A stretch of 64,000 nucleotides of DNA, from sequence record OR062945.1, one strand, 5' to 3'. A program made the position numbers and the translations under genes. Under the pieces are notes generated by a model. That model was not told the DNA's origin. It saw only the letters and a program-made list of their open reading frames with translations, and ran no database searches. Of this stretch, positions 1-34,838 are shown in pieces (position 1 is the stretch's first letter; each line of letters opens with the position of its first letter). Source of the DNA: Escherichia phage 308Ecol101PP.

Positions 1-210
1 GATAAAATCCACGGTGAAGAAGAGTTCGTTCCTCCGGCATGGAACGAAATAATGAAAATGGTTGAACGACGTGAAAATGCTGCCAAATCGGCAGCAAAAC
101 ATCCGTGCCCGGAATGTGGAACTATCCAAGTCCAACTGGTTAACTGGACCACTAATAACTTGAAATTGAAATGCCGTAAATGCTTCCACAAATTTGAGAG
201 AACATTATAA
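1..210 (+). CDS. hypothetical protein, C-terminal fragment with zinc-ribbon-like Cys pairs; 5' end lies outside the window
   Basis: Frame 1 is open from the window edge to TAA at 208-210; translation ends ...CPECG...CRKCFHKFERTL. Confidence 0.4.
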   Translation, partial: DKIHGEEEFVPPAWNEIMKMVERRENAAKSAAKHPCPECGTIQVQLVNWTTNNLKLKCRKCFHKFERTL

Positions 211-623
211 TGAGATATAGCCTTCGTTGTTTTATCGCAGCTTTAGTTTTTGCTATTATTCCATTCATTTGGAACAGCCAGAATACTTACATGGAAACTA
301 AAGTAATTCCTGTGGAGGTAGTGGAATTAATCTCAGGCCAATCTACAGGAAAATATTCTAAATTAGAATTTATTGCAGTCTATAAAGATGAGCAAGGACG
401 AGTTTTTGACAGGCGTGTATCGCCATCGTTTTATACGCTTCTGAATAAAGGTGATACGATAGCTATAGAAATTCGTGAGATGGATATCAAACAAACTACT
501 AAAGATAACTTGATTTGGTTCTTTGGTACAGTGTTGTTGGTTTCTATCTGTATCACAGGTTTTATTACATGTATTGTATTTGGCATTGCATATTTAATCG
601 ATGAAAGGAAAAATAATGTTTAA
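210..623 (+). CDS. hypothetical membrane protein
   Basis: 137-aa ORF with hydrophobic N- and C-terminal segments; start overlaps upstream stop (TAATG). Confidence 0.5.
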   Translation: MRYSLRCFIAALVFAIIPFIWNSQNTYMETKVIPVEVVELISGQSTGKYSKLEFIAVYKDEQGRVFDRRVSPSFYTLLNKGDTIAIEIREMDIKQTTKDNLIWFFGTVLLVSICITGFITCIVFGIAYLIDERKNNV

Positions 624-879
624 AGTGTACGGGTATGACTCTACTATTCATAAATGCATTTATTGCGATAATGCGAAACGATTGCTGACTGTTAAGAAAC
701 AACCATTCGAATTCATTAATGTTATGCCAGAAAAAGGTGTGTTCGATGATGAGAAAATTGCTGAGCTTCTGGTTAAGCTTGGTCGTGAATCACAAGTTGG
801 ATTGACTATGCCTCAAGTGTTTGCTCCTGATGGAACTTCGATCGGTGGCTTTGACCAACTACGAGAATATTTTAAATGA
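616..879 (+). CDS. nrdC: NrdC thioredoxin/glutaredoxin
   Basis: 87 aa starting MFKVYGYD with a CIYC redox motif; matches T4 NrdC in length and sequence from memory; start moved from track ATG 601 to ATG 616. Confidence 0.85.
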   Translation: MFKVYGYDSTIHKCIYCDNAKRLLTVKKQPFEFINVMPEKGVFDDEKIAELLVKLGRESQVGLTMPQVFAPDGTSIGGFDQLREYFK

Positions 880-1232
880 CATATTCATTAAATCTTAAAG
901 ATTTCCAAGATGTATACGAAGTTTGTGCCAATGAACTTGGTCCTGATGCTCCAACTATTATTGAAGTTTTAAATGTGCTCCCTTCATCATTAGCTTACGA
1001 AGCCAAATCATGTGGTTGGAACGACACTGTCGTTCGTGATGACCTTTACGTCCTGATGAACGATATGATGGTTAAAAAGGCAGAACCGGTTGCACCAATG
1101 GTTACCATTACCGTTGAAGAATATAATCGCCTGCAAGCCATTGAAGAGCTTCTGTGGAACATTGAATGTGACCTGCCATCCGGACTAGAATCCTGGATTG
1201 ATTATGAAGAGCTCAATAAACTCCGGGGTTAA
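876..1232 (+). CDS. hypothetical protein
   Basis: 118-aa ORF, start overlaps nrdC stop; acidic. Confidence 0.45.
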   Translation: MTYSLNLKDFQDVYEVCANELGPDAPTIIEVLNVLPSSLAYEAKSCGWNDTVVRDDLYVLMNDMMVKKAEPVAPMVTITVEEYNRLQAIEELLWNIECDLPSGLESWIDYEELNKLRG

Positions 1233-1360
1233 ACCGTGGTATTCGGCTCGATGGGAGACAGTCGAGCCAGACGTCGAAACAGTTTACAATGACGAAGAAA
1301 CGTGTTATGATGAACCTTCAATAAATGAATTAATTGATATGGAAATGGGAAGAGATTATT

Positions 1361-1531
1361 ATGCAAGTTAAATTATTGTACCGTTTATTAAAAAATGGCA
1401 AGCATGATTGGTATTTGCTTATTAAAACCGATCCGAATTTTTTCTCTGGACAACCATTTACAGTTCGTCCTACTAAACGTCAGCTTCGCAAAGCTAAACG
1501 TTCCCATCGTAACTTTTATAGAGAATATTGA
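1361..1531 (+). CDS. small basic protein with C-terminal RPTKRQLRKAKR tail
   Basis: Track ORF 1334..1531 begins at TTG; first ATG at 1361; the C-terminal motif recurs in three other small ORFs in the window. Confidence 0.4.
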   Translation: MQVKLLYRLLKNGKHDWYLLIKTDPNFFSGQPFTVRPTKRQLRKAKRSHRNFYREY

Positions 1532-1532
1532 T

Positions 1533-1946
1533 ATGAATATTTCTGAAACTCGCGGTAAATGGTTCAAGATTGTTAAAGAAGACGAAGAACTCCAAGATAA
1601 GTTTCCTGAATTAAAGAAAGATACGATCATCAAGGTAATTGGTACTACTACCGAAGATGGTTATGGCGACCATGGCATTATCGAAGTGATGTTGAACACA
1701 GGTGAGAAACTTTGCATCTATGACCGTGATACTTCTCTTTGGTGCTTCTGGGAATCCCATTCAATAGATGAACTCGAAGAAATTGACCAAGTAGTTTGTG
1801 ATGGTGGACTTGGCGAATTCGAAGGTGAACGTATTTCTTATGCTTTAGCTAAATTAGCCGCCCAAGAAAATAATGACGGTTATGAAGGTAATCTGATGCA
1901 AGCCGCAGCGGAATACATTGAATATTTAGAAAGACGTTTAAGTTAA
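1533..1946 (+). CDS. hypothetical acidic protein
   Basis: Track ORF 1395..1946; internal ATG at 1533 follows the stop of the preceding ORF. Confidence 0.45.
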   Translation: MNISETRGKWFKIVKEDEELQDKFPELKKDTIIKVIGTTTEDGYGDHGIIEVMLNTGEKLCIYDRDTSLWCFWESHSIDELEEIDQVVCDGGLGEFEGERISYALAKLAAQENNDGYEGNLMQAAAEYIEYLERRLS

Positions 1947-1955
1947 GGGCTTATT

Positions 1956-2135
1956 ATGAAAACTGCATTATTTTTTGGCGAAAGAACAAACGGTCAAAAA
2001 TCTTGGAAATTTGTTATAATTGGTGCTCCAAACAATCCGAACATGAGGACTTCAATCATTTCGGTAACACGTCCTACTAAAAGAATGATTCGCCAATACA
2101 AACGTTTCCATCGTGACTTTTATAACATTTATTAA
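1956..2135 (+). CDS. small protein with C-terminal RPTKRMIRQYKRFHRDFY tail (not in ORF track, 59 aa)
   Basis: Hand-translated ATG 1956 to TAA 2133-2135; its 3' end is about 75 percent identical at DNA level to the 3' end of 1361..1531. Confidence 0.4.
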   Translation: MKTALFFGERTNGQKSWKFVIIGAPNNPNMRTSIISVTRPTKRMIRQYKRFHRDFYNIY

Positions 2136-2137
2136 AT

Positions 2138-2145
2138 TATAAATA
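2138..2145 (+). promoter_or_regulatory. T4-type late promoter (TATAAATA) upstream of gene 49
   Basis: Exact TATAAATA about 29 nt upstream of the gene 49 ATG. Confidence 0.5.
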
Positions 2146-2168
2146 CCCTTATCTAATATGGTAAGGGT
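2145..2168 (+). promoter_or_regulatory. inverted repeat that can sequester the gene 49 ribosome-binding site
   Basis: Arms ACCCTTA (2145-2151) and TAAGGGT (2162-2168); the downstream arm contains the Shine-Dalgarno sequence. Confidence 0.45.
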
Positions 2169-2173
2169 TTATT

Positions 2174-2647
2174 ATGTTATTATCTGGCAAATTATACAAA
2201 GAAGAAAAACAAAAATTTTATGATGCACAGAATGGTAAGTGTCCTATTTGCCACCGTGAATTAGACCCTGATGTTCAAGGTAACCATCTTGACCACGACC
2301 ACGAATTAAACGGGCCAAAAGCAGGTAGAGTTCGTGGGTTACTCTGTAATCTGTGCAACGCAGCAGAAGGCCAAATGAAGCATAAGTTCAACCGTTCCGG
2401 TCTTAAAGGACGTGATGTCGACTACCTCGAATGGCTTGAAGCTCTTCTTGCTTATTTGAAACAAGATTATTCTGATAATAATATCCATCCTAATTTTGTT
2501 CCAGACAAAACTAAAGAGTTCTCAAGACTAGGTAAAGAGGAAATGATGGCTGAGATGCTTCAAAGAGGATTTGAATATAATGAATCTGATACCAAAACAC
2601 AATTAATAGCTTCATTCAAAAAGCAGCTTAGAAAGAGTTTAAAATGA
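2174..2647 (+). CDS. 49: endonuclease VII (Holliday junction resolvase)
   Basis: 157 aa, N-terminal CPIC...C...C zinc site and HLDHDHELNG motif; matches T4 gp49 from memory. Confidence 0.9.
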   Translation: MLLSGKLYKEEKQKFYDAQNGKCPICHRELDPDVQGNHLDHDHELNGPKAGRVRGLLCNLCNAAEGQMKHKFNRSGLKGRDVDYLEWLEALLAYLKQDYSDNNIHPNFVPDKTKEFSRLGKEEMMAEMLQRGFEYNESDTKTQLIASFKKQLRKSLK

Positions 2648-4461
2648 AAATTGAAAAAGAAATTGAAGGATTAATTCATAAAACTAATAAAGATCTTTTG
2701 AACGAGAATGCTAATAAAGATTCTCGTGTTTTTCCAACTCAACGGGACCTTATGGCTGGTATTGTGTCTAAGCACATTGCCAAAAATATGGTCCCGTCTT
2801 TTATTATGAAAGCACATGAAAGCGGAATTATCCATTTCCATGATATTGATTATTCCCCTGCTCTTCCATTTACTAATTGCTGTTTAGTAGATTTAAAAGG
2901 AATGCTTGAAAACGGGTTTAAGCTAGGTAATGCTCAAATTGAAACGCCTAAATCGATTGGTGTTGCTACTGCAATTATGGCACAAATTACCGCACAGGTT
3001 GCTTCACATCAGTACGGCGGAACGACTTTTGCTAATGTAGATAAAGTACTTTCTCCTTATGTTAAACGCACCTATGCAAAACATATTGAGGATGCAGAAA
3101 AATGGCAAATCGCTGATGCGTTGAATTATGCCCAATCTAAAACAGAAAAAGACGTATACGATGCATTTCAAGCTTATGAGTATGAAGTAAATACTCTTTT
3201 TAGCTCAAACGGTCAAACGCCTTTTGTAACAATTACATTTGGTACTGGAACTGACTGGACTGAACGAATTATTCAGAAAGCAATTCTTAAAAACCGCATT
3301 AAAGGCCTTGGTCGTGATGGAATAACTCCTATTTTCCCTAAACTTGTTATGTTCATTGAAGAGGGTGTCAATCTTTATAAAGACGACCCGAACTATGATA
3401 TTAAGCAGCTTGCTCTAGAGTGTGCAAGCAAAAGAATGTATCCTGATATTATTTCAGTTAAGAACAATAAAGCTATCACTGGTTCATCTATTCCTGTTTC
3501 TCCAATGGGTTGTCGTAGTTTCTTGAGTGTATGGAAAGATTCGACTGGAAATGAAATTCTTGATGGACGTAATAATCTTGGTGTTGTAACACTGAATCTT
3601 CCTCGTATTGCGTTAGATTCTTATATTGGAACACAATTCAATGAACAGAAATTTGTTGAGCTATTTAATGAACGAATGGATCTGTGTTTTGAAGCCTTGA
3701 TGTGTAGAATTAGTTCTTTAAAGGGTGTTAAAGCAACTGTTGCTCCTATTCTTTACCAAGAAGGTGCATTCGGGGTTCGTCTTAAACCTGATGACGATAT
3801 AATTGAGTTATTTAAAAACGGTAGAAGTTCAGTGTCCTTAGGATACATTGGTATTCACGAATTGAATATTCTTGTCGGTCGTGATATTGGACAAGAAATT
3901 TTAACTAAAATGAATGCTCGTCTTAAGCAGTGGACTGAAAGAACCGGTTTTGCTTTTAGCTTGTATTCTACTCCTGCTGAAAACCTGTGCTATCGCTTCT
4001 GTAAACTTGATACCGAGAAATATGGAAGTGTAAAAGATGTTACTGATAAAGGCTGGTACACTAATAGTTTCCATGTTTCAGTAGAAGAAAATATCACTCC
4101 GTTTGAAAAGATTTCTCGCGAAGCCCCATATCATTTCATTGCGACTGGCGGACATATTTCTTATGTTGAACTTCCTGATATGAAAAATAACCTAAAAGGT
4201 CTTGAGGCTGTATGGGATTATGCTGCACAACATTTAGATTATTTTGGTGTTAATATGCCAGTAGATAAATGTTTTACATGTGGAAGTACTCATGAAATGA
4301 CTCCTACTGAAACCGGATTTGTTTGTTCTATTTGTGGAGAAACTGACCCTAAAAAGATGAACACCATAAGAAGAACATGCGGTTATCTTGGAAATCCTAA
4401 CGAACGCGGATTTAATCTCGGCAAAAATAAAGAAATCATGCATAGGGTTAAACACCAATGA
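2644..4461 (+). CDS. nrdD: anaerobic ribonucleoside-triphosphate reductase
   Basis: 605 aa, C-terminal glycyl-radical region and CxxC zinc site (CFTCGS...CSICGE); uninterrupted ORF. Confidence 0.9.
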   Translation: MKIEKEIEGLIHKTNKDLLNENANKDSRVFPTQRDLMAGIVSKHIAKNMVPSFIMKAHESGIIHFHDIDYSPALPFTNCCLVDLKGMLENGFKLGNAQIETPKSIGVATAIMAQITAQVASHQYGGTTFANVDKVLSPYVKRTYAKHIEDAEKWQIADALNYAQSKTEKDVYDAFQAYEYEVNTLFSSNGQTPFVTITFGTGTDWTERIIQKAILKNRIKGLGRDGITPIFPKLVMFIEEGVNLYKDDPNYDIKQLALECASKRMYPDIISVKNNKAITGSSIPVSPMGCRSFLSVWKDSTGNEILDGRNNLGVVTLNLPRIALDSYIGTQFNEQKFVELFNERMDLCFEALMCRISSLKGVKATVAPILYQEGAFGVRLKPDDDIIELFKNGRSSVSLGYIGIHELNILVGRDIGQEILTKMNARLKQWTERTGFAFSLYSTPAENLCYRFCKLDTEKYGSVKDVTDKGWYTNSFHVSVEENITPFEKISREAPYHFIATGGHISYVELPDMKNNLKGLEAVWDYAAQHLDYFGVNMPVDKCFTCGSTHEMTPTETGFVCSICGETDPKKMNTIRRTCGYLGNPNERGFNLGKNKEIMHRVKHQ

Positions 4462-29431: not shown

Positions 29432-29749
29432 ATGAAAACCATCGATTGTAAAGCAGAATTTAAGATTTTTTATCACGGTTCAAGTAGTTCAGCTAACATC
29501 GAAAACATGCTTTGTCCTCCTGAGGAAACAGGAGTTCTGTCTGAAACCGGACGTAAGAAAAACTTGGATCGTGTATTCTTTACTGAAGATATCGGTTTAG
29601 CAAAGATTTATGCAGGACGAGCAGCACGCTCTTATGGAGGTGAACCACGTCTCTATCGAGTAATTTCTCCGGTAGACGTAGTTCAAATGAATGATACTAA
29701 AGGTGCTACAGTTTATCACGCTGAATGGGCATTTTGTGAGGAAATATGA
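29432..29749 (+). CDS. hypothetical protein
   Basis: 105-aa ORF. Confidence 0.45.
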   Translation: MKTIDCKAEFKIFYHGSSSSANIENMLCPPEETGVLSETGRKKNLDRVFFTEDIGLAKIYAGRAARSYGGEPRLYRVISPVDVVQMNDTKGATVYHAEWAFCEEI

Positions 29750-29937
29750 GCAAATTAACTAAAGTTACTTTTATAGGTTGGTTTAAAAGCGGTGAGATGT
29801 TCACTAAAGATATCATGTTATCAGGTGATCGCGAAGAAATCGAGTGGGTTACGGTACAACTTGCTGAAGTGAACAACGCATTAGTTAAAGCATTTGTTAA
29901 TGACGAGAAAGTTTTTGAAGCTGATTTCAGAGGATAA
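29746..29937 (+). CDS. dmd: Dmd-like antitoxin (inhibitor of host RnlA/LsoA RNase toxins)
   Basis: 63 aa with pattern FIGWFKSGEMFTK...LAEVNNALVKAF, which resembles T4 Dmd as I remember it; sits between 41 and 61. Confidence 0.65.
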   Translation: MSKLTKVTFIGWFKSGEMFTKDIMLSGDREEIEWVTVQLAEVNNALVKAFVNDEKVFEADFRG

Positions 29938-29938
29938 T

Positions 29939-30151
29939 ATGTATTCAACTGTGTTTAAACCATCAACATACGAATTTGCATCAACTACACAATGGAAAGC
30001 TCTTATTCTGGAAGGATGGGAACTAATGATGGACTGTGAAGCATCTGAAAAGTTTCCGCACGGCAAAGTGGACTTCGTTAAATTTGCTGTACGTCCGACT
30101 AAACGACAGATTCGTCAAGAAAAACGCAAATTTCGCAAAAGTTTAAAATAA
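29939..30151 (+). CDS. small protein with C-terminal RPTKRQIRQEKRKFRK tail
   Basis: Track ORF 29894..30151; ATG 29939 follows the dmd stop; third member of the RPTKRQ-tail family. Confidence 0.4.
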   Translation: MYSTVFKPSTYEFASTTQWKALILEGWELMMDCEASEKFPHGKVDFVKFAVRPTKRQIRQEKRKFRKSLK

Positions 30152-33929: not shown

Positions 33930-34451
33930 ATGGCACACTTTAACGAATGTTCACAACTTATTTCTGGTGTTGATAAAGCAGAAGAAGCTTATTTTAATGC
34001 TCTGATTCACGAAGATAAAGACCCACTTCAGGTAATGCTTGATATGCAGAAATCTTTACAGGTTCGTTTGGCAAATGACAAGCCTGAACATAACAAACAT
34101 CCTGATGAATTGGCCACTGCAGGCGACGTTGTTGATTGGCTGCGTAATCAGAAAGATTATATTGATGATGAATTCCGTGAACTGCTGACTTCACTTGGTG
34201 GTATGAGCAATGGTGAAAAAGCCGCCAGCAGTGTATGGAAGCCGTGGAAAGCACAACATGCTGAATATCGTAATCGTCGTATCGATGAACTGTCTCCTGA
34301 AGACCAGCTTGAAATTAAATTTGAGATGATTGATATTCTGCACTTCGTTCTGAACATGTTCCAAGGTCTGGGTCTTTCTGCTGAAGAAATCTTTAAACTG
34401 TATTATCTGAAGAATGCTGAAAACTTTGCTCGTCAAGACCGAGGTTATTAA
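33930..34451 (+). CDS. 56: dCTP/dUTP pyrophosphatase gp56 (MazG-like)
   Basis: 173 aa starting MAHFNE with acidic MazG-type helices; track start 33915 is TTG. Confidence 0.75.
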   Translation: MAHFNECSQLISGVDKAEEAYFNALIHEDKDPLQVMLDMQKSLQVRLANDKPEHNKHPDELATAGDVVDWLRNQKDYIDDEFRELLTSLGGMSNGEKAASSVWKPWKAQHAEYRNRRIDELSPEDQLEIKFEMIDILHFVLNMFQGLGLSAEEIFKLYYLKNAENFARQDRGY

Positions 34452-34624
34452 TGGCTCGTTTAAATAAACGTCAGCTTAAGAAAGCTCATAAGAAACGTAT
34501 TGACCAACTATTTAAAAATGATAACAGTGAGCTTATTTGTAAGCTCCTGTCTAATCAGCTTCAGCATGTTAGTCAATTATCAGACCATCTACATATGGTT
34601 GATTGGGTTGCAAATGAAACTTGA
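34451..34624 (+). CDS. hypothetical small basic protein (57 aa, not in ORF track)
   Basis: Hand-translated; N-terminus MARLNKRQLKKAHKKR resembles the RPTKRQ tail motif. Confidence 0.3.
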   Translation: MARLNKRQLKKAHKKRIDQLFKNDNSELICKLLSNQLQHVSQLSDHLHMVDWVANET

Positions 34625-34838
34625 TTTTTATGCATGGCAAAAAGCCGGGAGACCGGCTAATAAAGCATTCGGCTCTGATGGATATAATACTAGACTCCAC
34701 TGGAAATTTAATACTCCAGATGATTATTCTCCGGTAATAATTAACGGTGATGTTGTTATATTAGCTAAATTCGGATATTTTATTGTCCCGAAGAAATTCA
34801 TTATAAATACACCTGTAATTAAACAACAAAGGAGTTAA
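34614..34838 (+). CDS. hypothetical protein
   Basis: Internal ATG of track ORF 34500..34838. Confidence 0.3.
   Translation: MKLDFYAWQKAGRPANKAFGSDGYNTRLHWKFNTPDDYSPVIINGDVVILAKFGYFIVPKKFIINTPVIKQQRS
34802..34809 (+). promoter_or_regulatory. T4-type late promoter (TATAAATA) upstream of soc
   Basis: Exact TATAAATA about 31 nt upstream of the soc ATG. Confidence 0.55.

Follow-up and report, generated by a model that had tools for sequence, protein, structure and literature searches.

The DNA considered here is a stretch of 64,000 nucleotides from Escherichia phage 308Ecol101PP (sequence record OR062945.1), called the window below, and the type of phage it comes from is an RB69-like T-even phage (Mosigvirus). 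Towards its left end, two very small genes stand on either side of pin. They are called c1 (open reading frame, ORF, 1361..1531) and c2 (ORF 1956..2135) in the following, and a third small gene, ORF 29939..30151, is called c3. On the + strand, which is the direction of early transcription, the order of genes is nrdC (601..879), RB69ORF091c, 49.1, c1, pin, c2, gene 49 and nrdD. Over positions 1200-2700 the window agrees completely (100%) with Escherichia phages PNJ-6, PNJ-9 and JQD51; the Mosigvirus JS09, where the genes flanking pin are noted as similar to RB69ORF089c and RB69ORF087c, agrees at 99.7%. A preliminary description of the window had singled out c1 and c2 for their nearly identical basic tails with the motif RPTKRQ, and both ORFs are present with the tails as quoted. 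As set out below, the alignments identify them as short paralogues of TifA, a published phage inhibitor of a host toxin, and the tail as the C-terminal helix of that family.

The c1 gene (1361..1531, + strand, RB69ORF089c type) lies immediately 5' of pin and encodes a protein of 56 amino acids (aa), MQVKLLYRLLKNGKHDWYLLIKTDPNFFSGQPFTVRPTKRQLRKAKRSHRNFYREY. The c2 gene (1956..2135, + strand, RB69ORF087c type) lies between pin and gene 49 and encodes 59 aa, MKTALFFGERTNGQKSWKFVIIGAPNNPNMRTSIISVTRPTKRMIRQYKRFHRDFYNIY. Both are real genes under purifying selection, since the ratio of nonsynonymous to synonymous polymorphism (pN/pS) is 0.10-0.15 where pS is 0.27-0.51 (about 0.14 for c1 against NicPhage, about 0.1 for c2), a purine-rich Shine-Dalgarno-like sequence is found 6 nt before the ATG of each, and the genes are tightly packed: the c1 ATG overlaps the stop codon of 49.1, and pin starts 2 nt past the c1 stop. 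The exact c1 protein was found on 261 contigs. Its counterpart is annotated in related phages as a 171-nt coding sequence, and in the RB69 record RB69ORF089c is annotated at only 38 aa. The proteins are very basic, with isoelectric points (pI) of 10.8 (c1) and 11.4 (c2) and with nine and seven Lys and Arg residues, respectively, among their last 21 residues.

All three proteins belong to one Pfam family, PF23945 (DUF7279), against whose curated gathering cut-off of 24.5 bits c1 scores 54.5, c2 53.8 and c3 72.1 (E-values of 1.1e-14, 1.8e-14 and 3.5e-20). The alignments cover positions 1-53, 4-53 and 2-52 of the 53-position model. By BLASTP, c1 and c2 align over their full length (59 columns, 36% identity, E 4e-11). 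A hidden Markov model (HMM) built from 33 family members was run against the 1258 stop-to-stop ORFs of the window and found c1, c2 and c3 only, with E-values of 1e-21 to 3e-24 against 0.66 for the runner-up; the same model found no further member in 1-50 kb and 111-161 kb of PNJ-6, a scan that stops short of the last 9 kb with late structural genes. Translated in all six frames, the window contains the string RPTKR exactly three times, once in each of the three proteins. Within the family, PHROGs places c1 and c2 in phrog_3272 (E 1.8e-30 for c2) and c3 in phrog_2375, and the identity of c1 and c2 to the TifA protein of RB69 (TifA_RB69) is about 26-35%, depending on the alignment. On these comparisons c1 and c2 are short TifA-family paralogues, homologous to each other over their full length, and not the otherwise unrelated small proteins with a shared tag that the preliminary description had taken them for. 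Its two further copies fared differently: c3 is a member of the family, whereas ORF 34451..34624 is not, since it has no DUF7279 match and its E-value against the family HMM, 2.7, lies in the noise of random ORFs.

The Pfam entry is the family of c1, c2 and c3 alike and is itself without a function. The NCBI name "DUF7279 family protein" is carried by close cluster relatives of c1 and c2 and by the exact c3 sequence. A full-text literature search for "DUF7279" returned no papers, and neither did searches for RB69ORF087c and RB69ORF089c; the link to TifA therefore comes from the literature on gene 61.4. The short form has in fact already been published as a family member. A 56-aa protein of phage phiE142 (UniProt A0A0U4JDN8), which falls into the same 90% cluster as c1, is included in the alignment of ten "TifA homologs" shown in Fig. 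5C of PMC10853763. What has been published is thus the membership of the short form, and not its function.

The gene c3 (29939..30151, + strand) connects the family to experimental work. It is tifA (gene 61.4), the characterised member, encodes 70 aa and is identical to RB69 gp61.4 (AAP75940.1); it is the orthologue of T4 gene 61.4 and lies directly 3' of dmd, as published. Gene 61.4 was renamed tifA by Srikant et al. (2022, PMC9391042), who describe its product as a protein inhibitor of the endoribonuclease ToxN. In their work, T4 escapes from the type III toxin-antitoxin system toxIN by amplification of dmd-tifA, T4 requires more TifA to overcome toxIN on a plasmid, and of the T-even phages RB69 suffers least from toxIN. 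RB69 TifA neutralises ToxN and is the most potent of the homologues tested, and the stronger effect of RB69 could be reproduced by its TifA alone, supplied from a plasmid (PMC9391042). Neutralisation of ToxN has been shown for the TifA proteins of T2, T4, T6 and RB69 (PMC9391042, PMC10853763). Guegler et al. (2023, PMC10853763) further found that the basic C-terminal helix of TifA, capped by Pro-Thr, binds RNA with little sequence preference, and that the cap and the basic residues following it are a conserved feature of the family. Synthetic TifA_RB69 bound RNA with a KD of 0.36-2.3 uM, while the substitutions P53A/T54A and K55A/R56A/R59A abolished RNA binding or co-purification, rescue from ToxN and co-precipitation of ToxN (PMC10853763). 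In the model of these authors, TifA traps ToxN on abundant RNA, notably 16S rRNA.

The RPTKRQ motif is this helix. The sequence of TifA_RB69 is given in Table S2 of PMC10853763, and c3 has P53, T54, K55, R56 and R59 at the published positions, the motif being residues R52-P53-T54-K55-R56-Q57-I58-R59. The helix of c1 starts R36-P-T-K-R-Q-L-R43 and that of c2 R39-P-T-K-R-M-I-R46, so that every residue mutated in TifA is kept. Across the 33 aligned members, P, T, R59, K62 and R66 never vary, and K55, R63 and W27, a tryptophan further upstream, hardly do; c1 and c2 have every one of these residues. The idea in the preliminary description of a nucleic-acid-binding element was therefore right, as the TifA helix binds RNA and its residues are kept in both proteins (PMC10853763), but the element is not a tag. 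A mobile mini-domain or targeting tag does not fit a tail that forms the C-terminal helix of a single-domain family whose members are paralogous over their full length and have the same predicted topology, and the suggested roles in virion packaging or nucleoid targeting found no support.

The predicted structures give the same picture. The AlphaFold2 (AF2) model of c2 has a mean predicted local distance difference test score (pLDDT) of 91.6, with strands at residues 2-9, 15-22 and 31-36 and a helix at 42-58, and that of c3 (pLDDT 76.8) has strands at 2-6, 27-33 and 43-49 and a helix at 55-69; c1 and c2 are thus predicted to share the core of TifA, three strands plus a helix. The likeness to TifA extends to the Pro-Thr cap, the equivalents of K55, R56 and R59, the phage group, a similar size class and a basic pI (9.9-11.4 across the proteins). 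There are also clear differences. TifA proteins are 70-85 aa long, against 56 and 59 aa for c1 and c2, and the loop of about 20 residues between beta1 and beta2 is absent from the short forms: the c3 model makes a low-confidence excursion of 20 residues here (7-26), where c1 and c2 have a 5-residue turn. The loops between beta2 and beta3, TDPNFFSG in c1 and APNNPNMR in c2, are unlike the EKFPHGK of TifA_RB69. This is the loop around residue 41 of TifA, which tunes ToxN inhibition and lies at the predicted interface with ToxN. The genes differ in place as well, since tifA adjoins dmd in the interval between genes 41 and 61, whereas c1 and c2 flank pin at a distance of about 28 kb from there, 5' of gene 49.

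Searches for relatives of solved structure gave nothing below E 1.6 in a profile search of PDB sequences and nothing below E 0.79 when the c2 model was compared with the PDB by Foldseek. In BFVD, Foldseek matched only small uncharacterised proteins of other T4-like phages, namely S16 (36% identity) and Merlin (TM score 0.83-0.90), which are probably more members of the family and add no function. Ribosomal protein bS21, whose basic C-terminus is KPT-capped and which binds 16S rRNA, was considered as a relative and rejected: hhalign of the family against E. coli RpsU gave a probability of 0.3% and E 0.18 over 12 columns. The bS21 family PF01165 gave no match at E-values up to 10.

At the DNA level, the likeness of c1 and c2 takes the form of a 55-nt direct repeat around pin, the gene for an inhibitor of the host Lon protease (1533..1946, + strand; Pfam PF10465 Inhibitor_I24, E 3.4e-47, and JS09 annotation). 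The left copy (1466..1520, + strand) codes for RPTKRQLRKAKRSHRNFY of c1 and the right copy (2070..2124, + strand) for RPTKRMIRQYKRFHRDFY of c2; the copies agree at 44 of 55 positions (80%) and start 604 nt apart. Counted over the 22 tail codons, 47 of 66 nucleotides are identical (71%), so that the earlier estimate of about 75% over roughly 60 nt was fair. Of the 13 residues that c1 and c2 have in common in the helix region, 12 use the identical codon, where 6.4 would be expected from the codon usage of the window (P = 0.001), while identity is at expectation for c1 against c3 (5 of 10) and c2 against c3 (6 of 11). Because codon identity between the neighbours exceeds expectation, exchange of sequence between the c1 and c2 tails is suggested, though a single modest statistic does not amount to proof.

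The repeat has left its mark on natural genomes. Mosigvirus-type phages show three architectures: c1-pin-c2-49 (100% query coverage), c1-pin-49 (84%) and a form without pin (52%). As an example of the last, in Shigella phage SHSML-52-1 (1001-1260 of the stretch compared) c1 runs to ...CATCGTAACTTTTATA and is then followed by the last codons of c2, the stop codon, a late-promoter box and a hairpin, with no pin and with a product ending ...SHRNFYNIY. In phages phiE142 and AV109, which also have no pin, the same c1::c2 junction, inside the shared ACTTTTATA, is joined to a c2 tail of the ATK47 type. The crossover of the natural chimeras thus falls within the last 9 nt of the left repeat copy, ACTTTTATA. 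The junction is found as a single contiguous match in at least 28 records, from about 24 distinct phages, and gene 49 follows directly. That all chimeras have a single junction points to one ancestral event or a strongly preferred crossover. Judged from these junctions, recombination between the two helix-coding segments has, in nature, removed pin and fused c1 to the c2 tail, and Srikant et al. (PMC9391042) describe the same kind of microhomology-driven deletion in evolving T4. A second repeat, D2 (1939-1958 and 2157-2176), might have explained the loss of c2 but was rejected as its route, since genomes without c2 retain the segment with the late promoter and the hairpin. The two copies of D2 belong to a set of similar start regions: those of c1 (1345-1363), c2 (1939-1958) and gene 49 (2157-2176) resemble one another (RGGRARRGNTTATTATG), with 84-85% identity over 19-20 nt.

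A related trace is found in T4 itself. When the T4 sequence (NC_000866 stretch, 2398-2883, minus strand) is compared with that of the Tequatrovirus PP01 (1055-1677), T4 pin continues past the end of PP01 pin (...SFSDRAF*). T4 Pin ends ...SFSDR-MIQQYKRLHQMFYNT, and the short protein of PP01 ends ...RPTKK-MIRQYKRLHRMFYNT. By this comparison the last 15 residues of the 161-aa T4 Pin (MIQQYKRLHQMFYNT) are the fossil of a short TifA-gene helix, acquired by an in-frame deletion fusion. The fossil helix is without the Pro-Thr cap, and two Arg have become Gln. PP01 and many other Tequatroviruses still have the short gene in intact form, between pin and gene 49.

The family is a small one that is widely carried by T-even phages. 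By tblastn, genes of the TifA type are present in 645 phage records, those of the c1 type in 409 and those of the c2 type in 367. Chance similarity is refuted by E-values of 1e-11 to 1e-24. Among 1.84 billion representative proteins, an exhaustive search with an HMM gave eight matches, one of which (P0005, 1685 aa) covers only profile positions 4-31, in repeats; a word-index search with c3 alone gave two, and a profile search of a collection of 5.8 billion sequences gave 35, all with PF23945. All matches of the family searches with a named source are from T-even-like phages. A distant DUF7279 member of 74 aa, with the helix RPTKRQIRQEKRAFR, was seen on a contig of Logan SRR32613846 (4001-4225) in a context that is not T4-like, with small ORFs and a DNA methylase gene. 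This member suggests that DUF7279 reaches beyond the T-even phages, and the homologue of Pectobacterium phage CB4 in the literature points the same way.

As for the two short genes, a gene of the c2 type lies directly 5' of gene 49 in the Tequatrovirus PP01 (in the order pin, short gene, 49), in the Gaprivervirus VR7 and in a metagenomic T4-like contig without pin. Gene 49 (2174..2647, + strand), for endonuclease VII, is identified by annotations, and in the metagenomic contig by Pfam Endonuclease_7; it is the conserved 3' neighbour of the short paralogue across genera. The c2 counterparts in Tequatrovirus and Gaprivervirus have 50-60% identity at the same position. For c1, matches at >80% identity occur only in genomes of the Mosigvirus type, and the Tequatrovirus matches at about 40% are the c2-type gene. 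Because the c2-type position is conserved across genera and c1 is confined to Mosigvirus-type genomes, c2 sits at the shared position, which is probably the ancestral one, and c1 is the additional copy.

It is likely, then, that c1 and c2, which are short TifA paralogues with the family's C-terminal helix as their RPTKRQ tail, are RNA-binding accessory proteins, probably with another partner than TifA has. In outline, c1 and c2 would be expressed with the surrounding accessory genes from nrdC to 49 and would bind RNA through the TifA-type helix. In TifA, that helix lets the protein keep ToxN inactive in a ribonucleoprotein complex on an abundant RNA such as 16S rRNA, and c1 and c2 would act as accessory, probably counter-defence, factors whose protein partner is probably other than ToxN. 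As a side effect, the helix-coding direct repeat around pin has allowed T-even recombination to delete pin and to fuse c1 to the c2 tail. RNA binding by c1 and c2 through the same helix is likely from the conserved residues. A counter-defence function with a partner other than ToxN is more tentative, and we would put it slightly below an even chance. It is argued by analogy from the sole characterised relative, which is a counter-defence protein, from the patchy presence of the genes, from the ToxN-facing loops that are missing or changed, and from the nearby pin with its Lon inhibitor. Lon inhibition by T7 Gp4.5 was reportedly found by Sberro et al. in 2013 to counter toxin-antitoxin defence. 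That the partner is probably not ToxN follows from the absence of the beta1-beta2 loop and from the different sequence of the residue-41 loop. It is conceivable, but on balance doubtful, that the short loop-less paralogues form a distinct functional class that combines the RNA-tethering helix with another surface and so traps a different host RNase or toxin on RNA, with other type III toxins such as TenpN or CptN, or an unrelated defence nuclease, as candidates.

Several points weigh against this interpretation. The c2 gene is dispensable in nature, being absent from about half of the related Mosigvirus records, and T4 has no intact short copy and no gene between pin and 49. The case for RNA binding by c1 and c2 consists of conserved residues, and the timing of their expression rests on gene order, a sigma-70 promoter scan of 1..2700 having given nothing above shuffled background. 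The published neutralisation panel was made up of long forms of about 70 aa or more, from T2, T4, T6, RB69, EcS1, vB_EcoM_005, VR7, JS98, PM2 and CB4, and contained no short form (PMC10853763). Six long but divergent homologues of TifA had no neutralising effect on any toxin tested (PMC10853763), so that a role against ToxN, or even against toxins at all, cannot be read from membership of the family.

The same failure bears on the idea that c1 and c2 are simply extra ToxN inhibitors which raise the dose of TifA, a natural counterpart of the tifA amplification seen in experiments with T4. All essential residues of the RNA-binding helix are there, T4 does need more TifA against plasmid-borne toxIN, and toxIN affects RB69 least among the T-even phages. 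However, long homologues with much greater similarity to TifA were without effect on every ToxN tested, and c1 and c2, at about a third or less of identical residues, lack the beta1-beta2 loop and have a changed residue-41 loop; moreover, plasmid-borne TifA was enough to account for the stronger effect of RB69. We regard this idea as improbable. About equally improbable is a housekeeping or regulatory role, in which c1 and c2 would be RNA-binding proteins that, for example, stabilise the transcripts of pin and gene 49 or control their translation. The conserved place of the short paralogue directly 5' of gene 49, beside a hairpin that overlaps the start region of gene 49, would suit such a role, as would the binding of RNA by TifA with little sequence preference, but c2 is often lost while gene 49 is kept, T4 has a fossil only, such patchiness is typical of accessory host-range genes and not of regulators of an essential packaging nuclease, and the family's one characterised member serves counter-defence.

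The notion of a portable basic module, appended to unrelated small proteins, draws on the DNA identity being concentrated in the tail (80% over 55 nt, with little upstream), on the tail codons agreeing more often than expected, and on the basic N-terminus with KRQLKK of the unrelated protein at 34451. In this form it is refuted and thus very improbable, since the Pfam and BLASTP alignments span the N-terminal sheet, the upstream Trp is (nearly) invariant and the predicted topology is the same, while neither the rest of the window nor a further 100 kb of PNJ-6 contains the motif; the protein at 34451 is a Soc.2 homologue at a noise-level score, and the excess of codon identity is better explained by exchange between neighbouring paralogues. 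Least credible of all, to the point of being negligible, is that the similarity is due to chance or to non-coding repeats and that the ORFs are not genes. They are indeed short, and the 38-aa annotation of RB69ORF089c might be read in this way, but the E-values, a pN/pS of about 0.1 and the presence in hundreds of phage records speak otherwise, and an Rfam scan of 1..3000 found no credible or significant RNA family.

With c1 and c2 as short TifA paralogues, the motif and the family are thus already known, as the published RNA-binding helix of TifA and as a Pfam family. In RB69-type phages the TifA family has three genes, of which two are of the short form, which is conserved 5' of gene 49 in several T-even genera. 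The short paralogues are cheap and well-defined candidates for new counter-defence specificities. If the proposal of a distinct class should hold, the TifA fold would be a modular "RNA anchor plus specificity face", diversified by duplication in T-even phages, and c1 and c2, together with pin (which blocks Lon and possibly the turnover of antitoxins), would form a second anti-toxin islet that is gained and lost through recombination of the helix repeat. The pair is also an example from natural genomes of the gain and loss of accessory genes through microhomology that is known from experimental evolution of T4: the 55-nt repeat of two paralogues has removed pin from a whole lineage, and the 15-residue remnant at the end of T4 Pin matters for the interpretation of structure-function data on that protein.

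Among the neighbouring features, the segment between c2 and gene 49 (2139..2168, + strand) consists, as read from the sequence, of a TATAAATA box followed by a 9-bp hairpin that ends just 5' of the gene 49 start. The box at 2139 we take to be the T4 late-promoter consensus. The hairpin, at 2145-2168, is terminator-like, and the segment of TATAAATA and hairpin is conserved in T4, PP01 and APCEc01; it is the downstream boundary of the c2 cassette. The gene 49 copy of the RGGRARRGNTTATTATG-like start region forms the 3' arm of this hairpin, directly 3' of the TATAAATA box. In the nrdC-49 interval of PP01, a 56-aa gene (429-599 of the stretch compared) that separates nrdC from 49.2 carries the annotation "antitoxin from a toxin-antitoxin system". 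The label would be another hint that anti-toxin genes collect in this interval.

Upstream of tifA and in the same operon lies dmd (29746..29937, + strand), identified by Pfam PF17587 Dmd (E 4e-21) and the JS09 annotation, which encodes the antitoxin against RnlA and LsoA. Dmd (T4 61.5) and AdfA (61.2), both from the published "anti-TA island" (TA, toxin-antitoxin), are like TifA small early accessory anti-toxin proteins of T-even phages, but they belong to sequence families unrelated to TifA, and Dmd binds its toxin directly, without RNA. Directly 5' of dmd-tifA there is a 105-aa ORF (29432-29749, RB69ORF040c type) with no Pfam match. From its place in the island it is a candidate counter-defence gene.

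The ORF 34451..34624 (+ strand), excluded from the TifA family above, encodes a small protein of the Soc.2 type (phrog_5782, E 2.1e-30) and lies 3' of gene 56. By tblastn its relatives are found in 289 records, all adjoining the dCTPase gene 56, and one of them is annotated Soc.2, the name given in T-even phages to a small ORF that separates gene 56 from soc. The basic N-terminus of Soc.2 contains KRQLKK; unlike the TifA family, however, Soc.2 has no Pro-Thr cap, no sheet and no DUF7279 signal. About 390 nt between gene 56 and soc (34451-34838), which contain the Soc.2-type ORF and an overlapping 112-aa ORF (34500..34838), are absent from JS09. The PHROG label "virion structural protein" on relatives of Soc.2 may be borrowed from the neighbouring soc gene.

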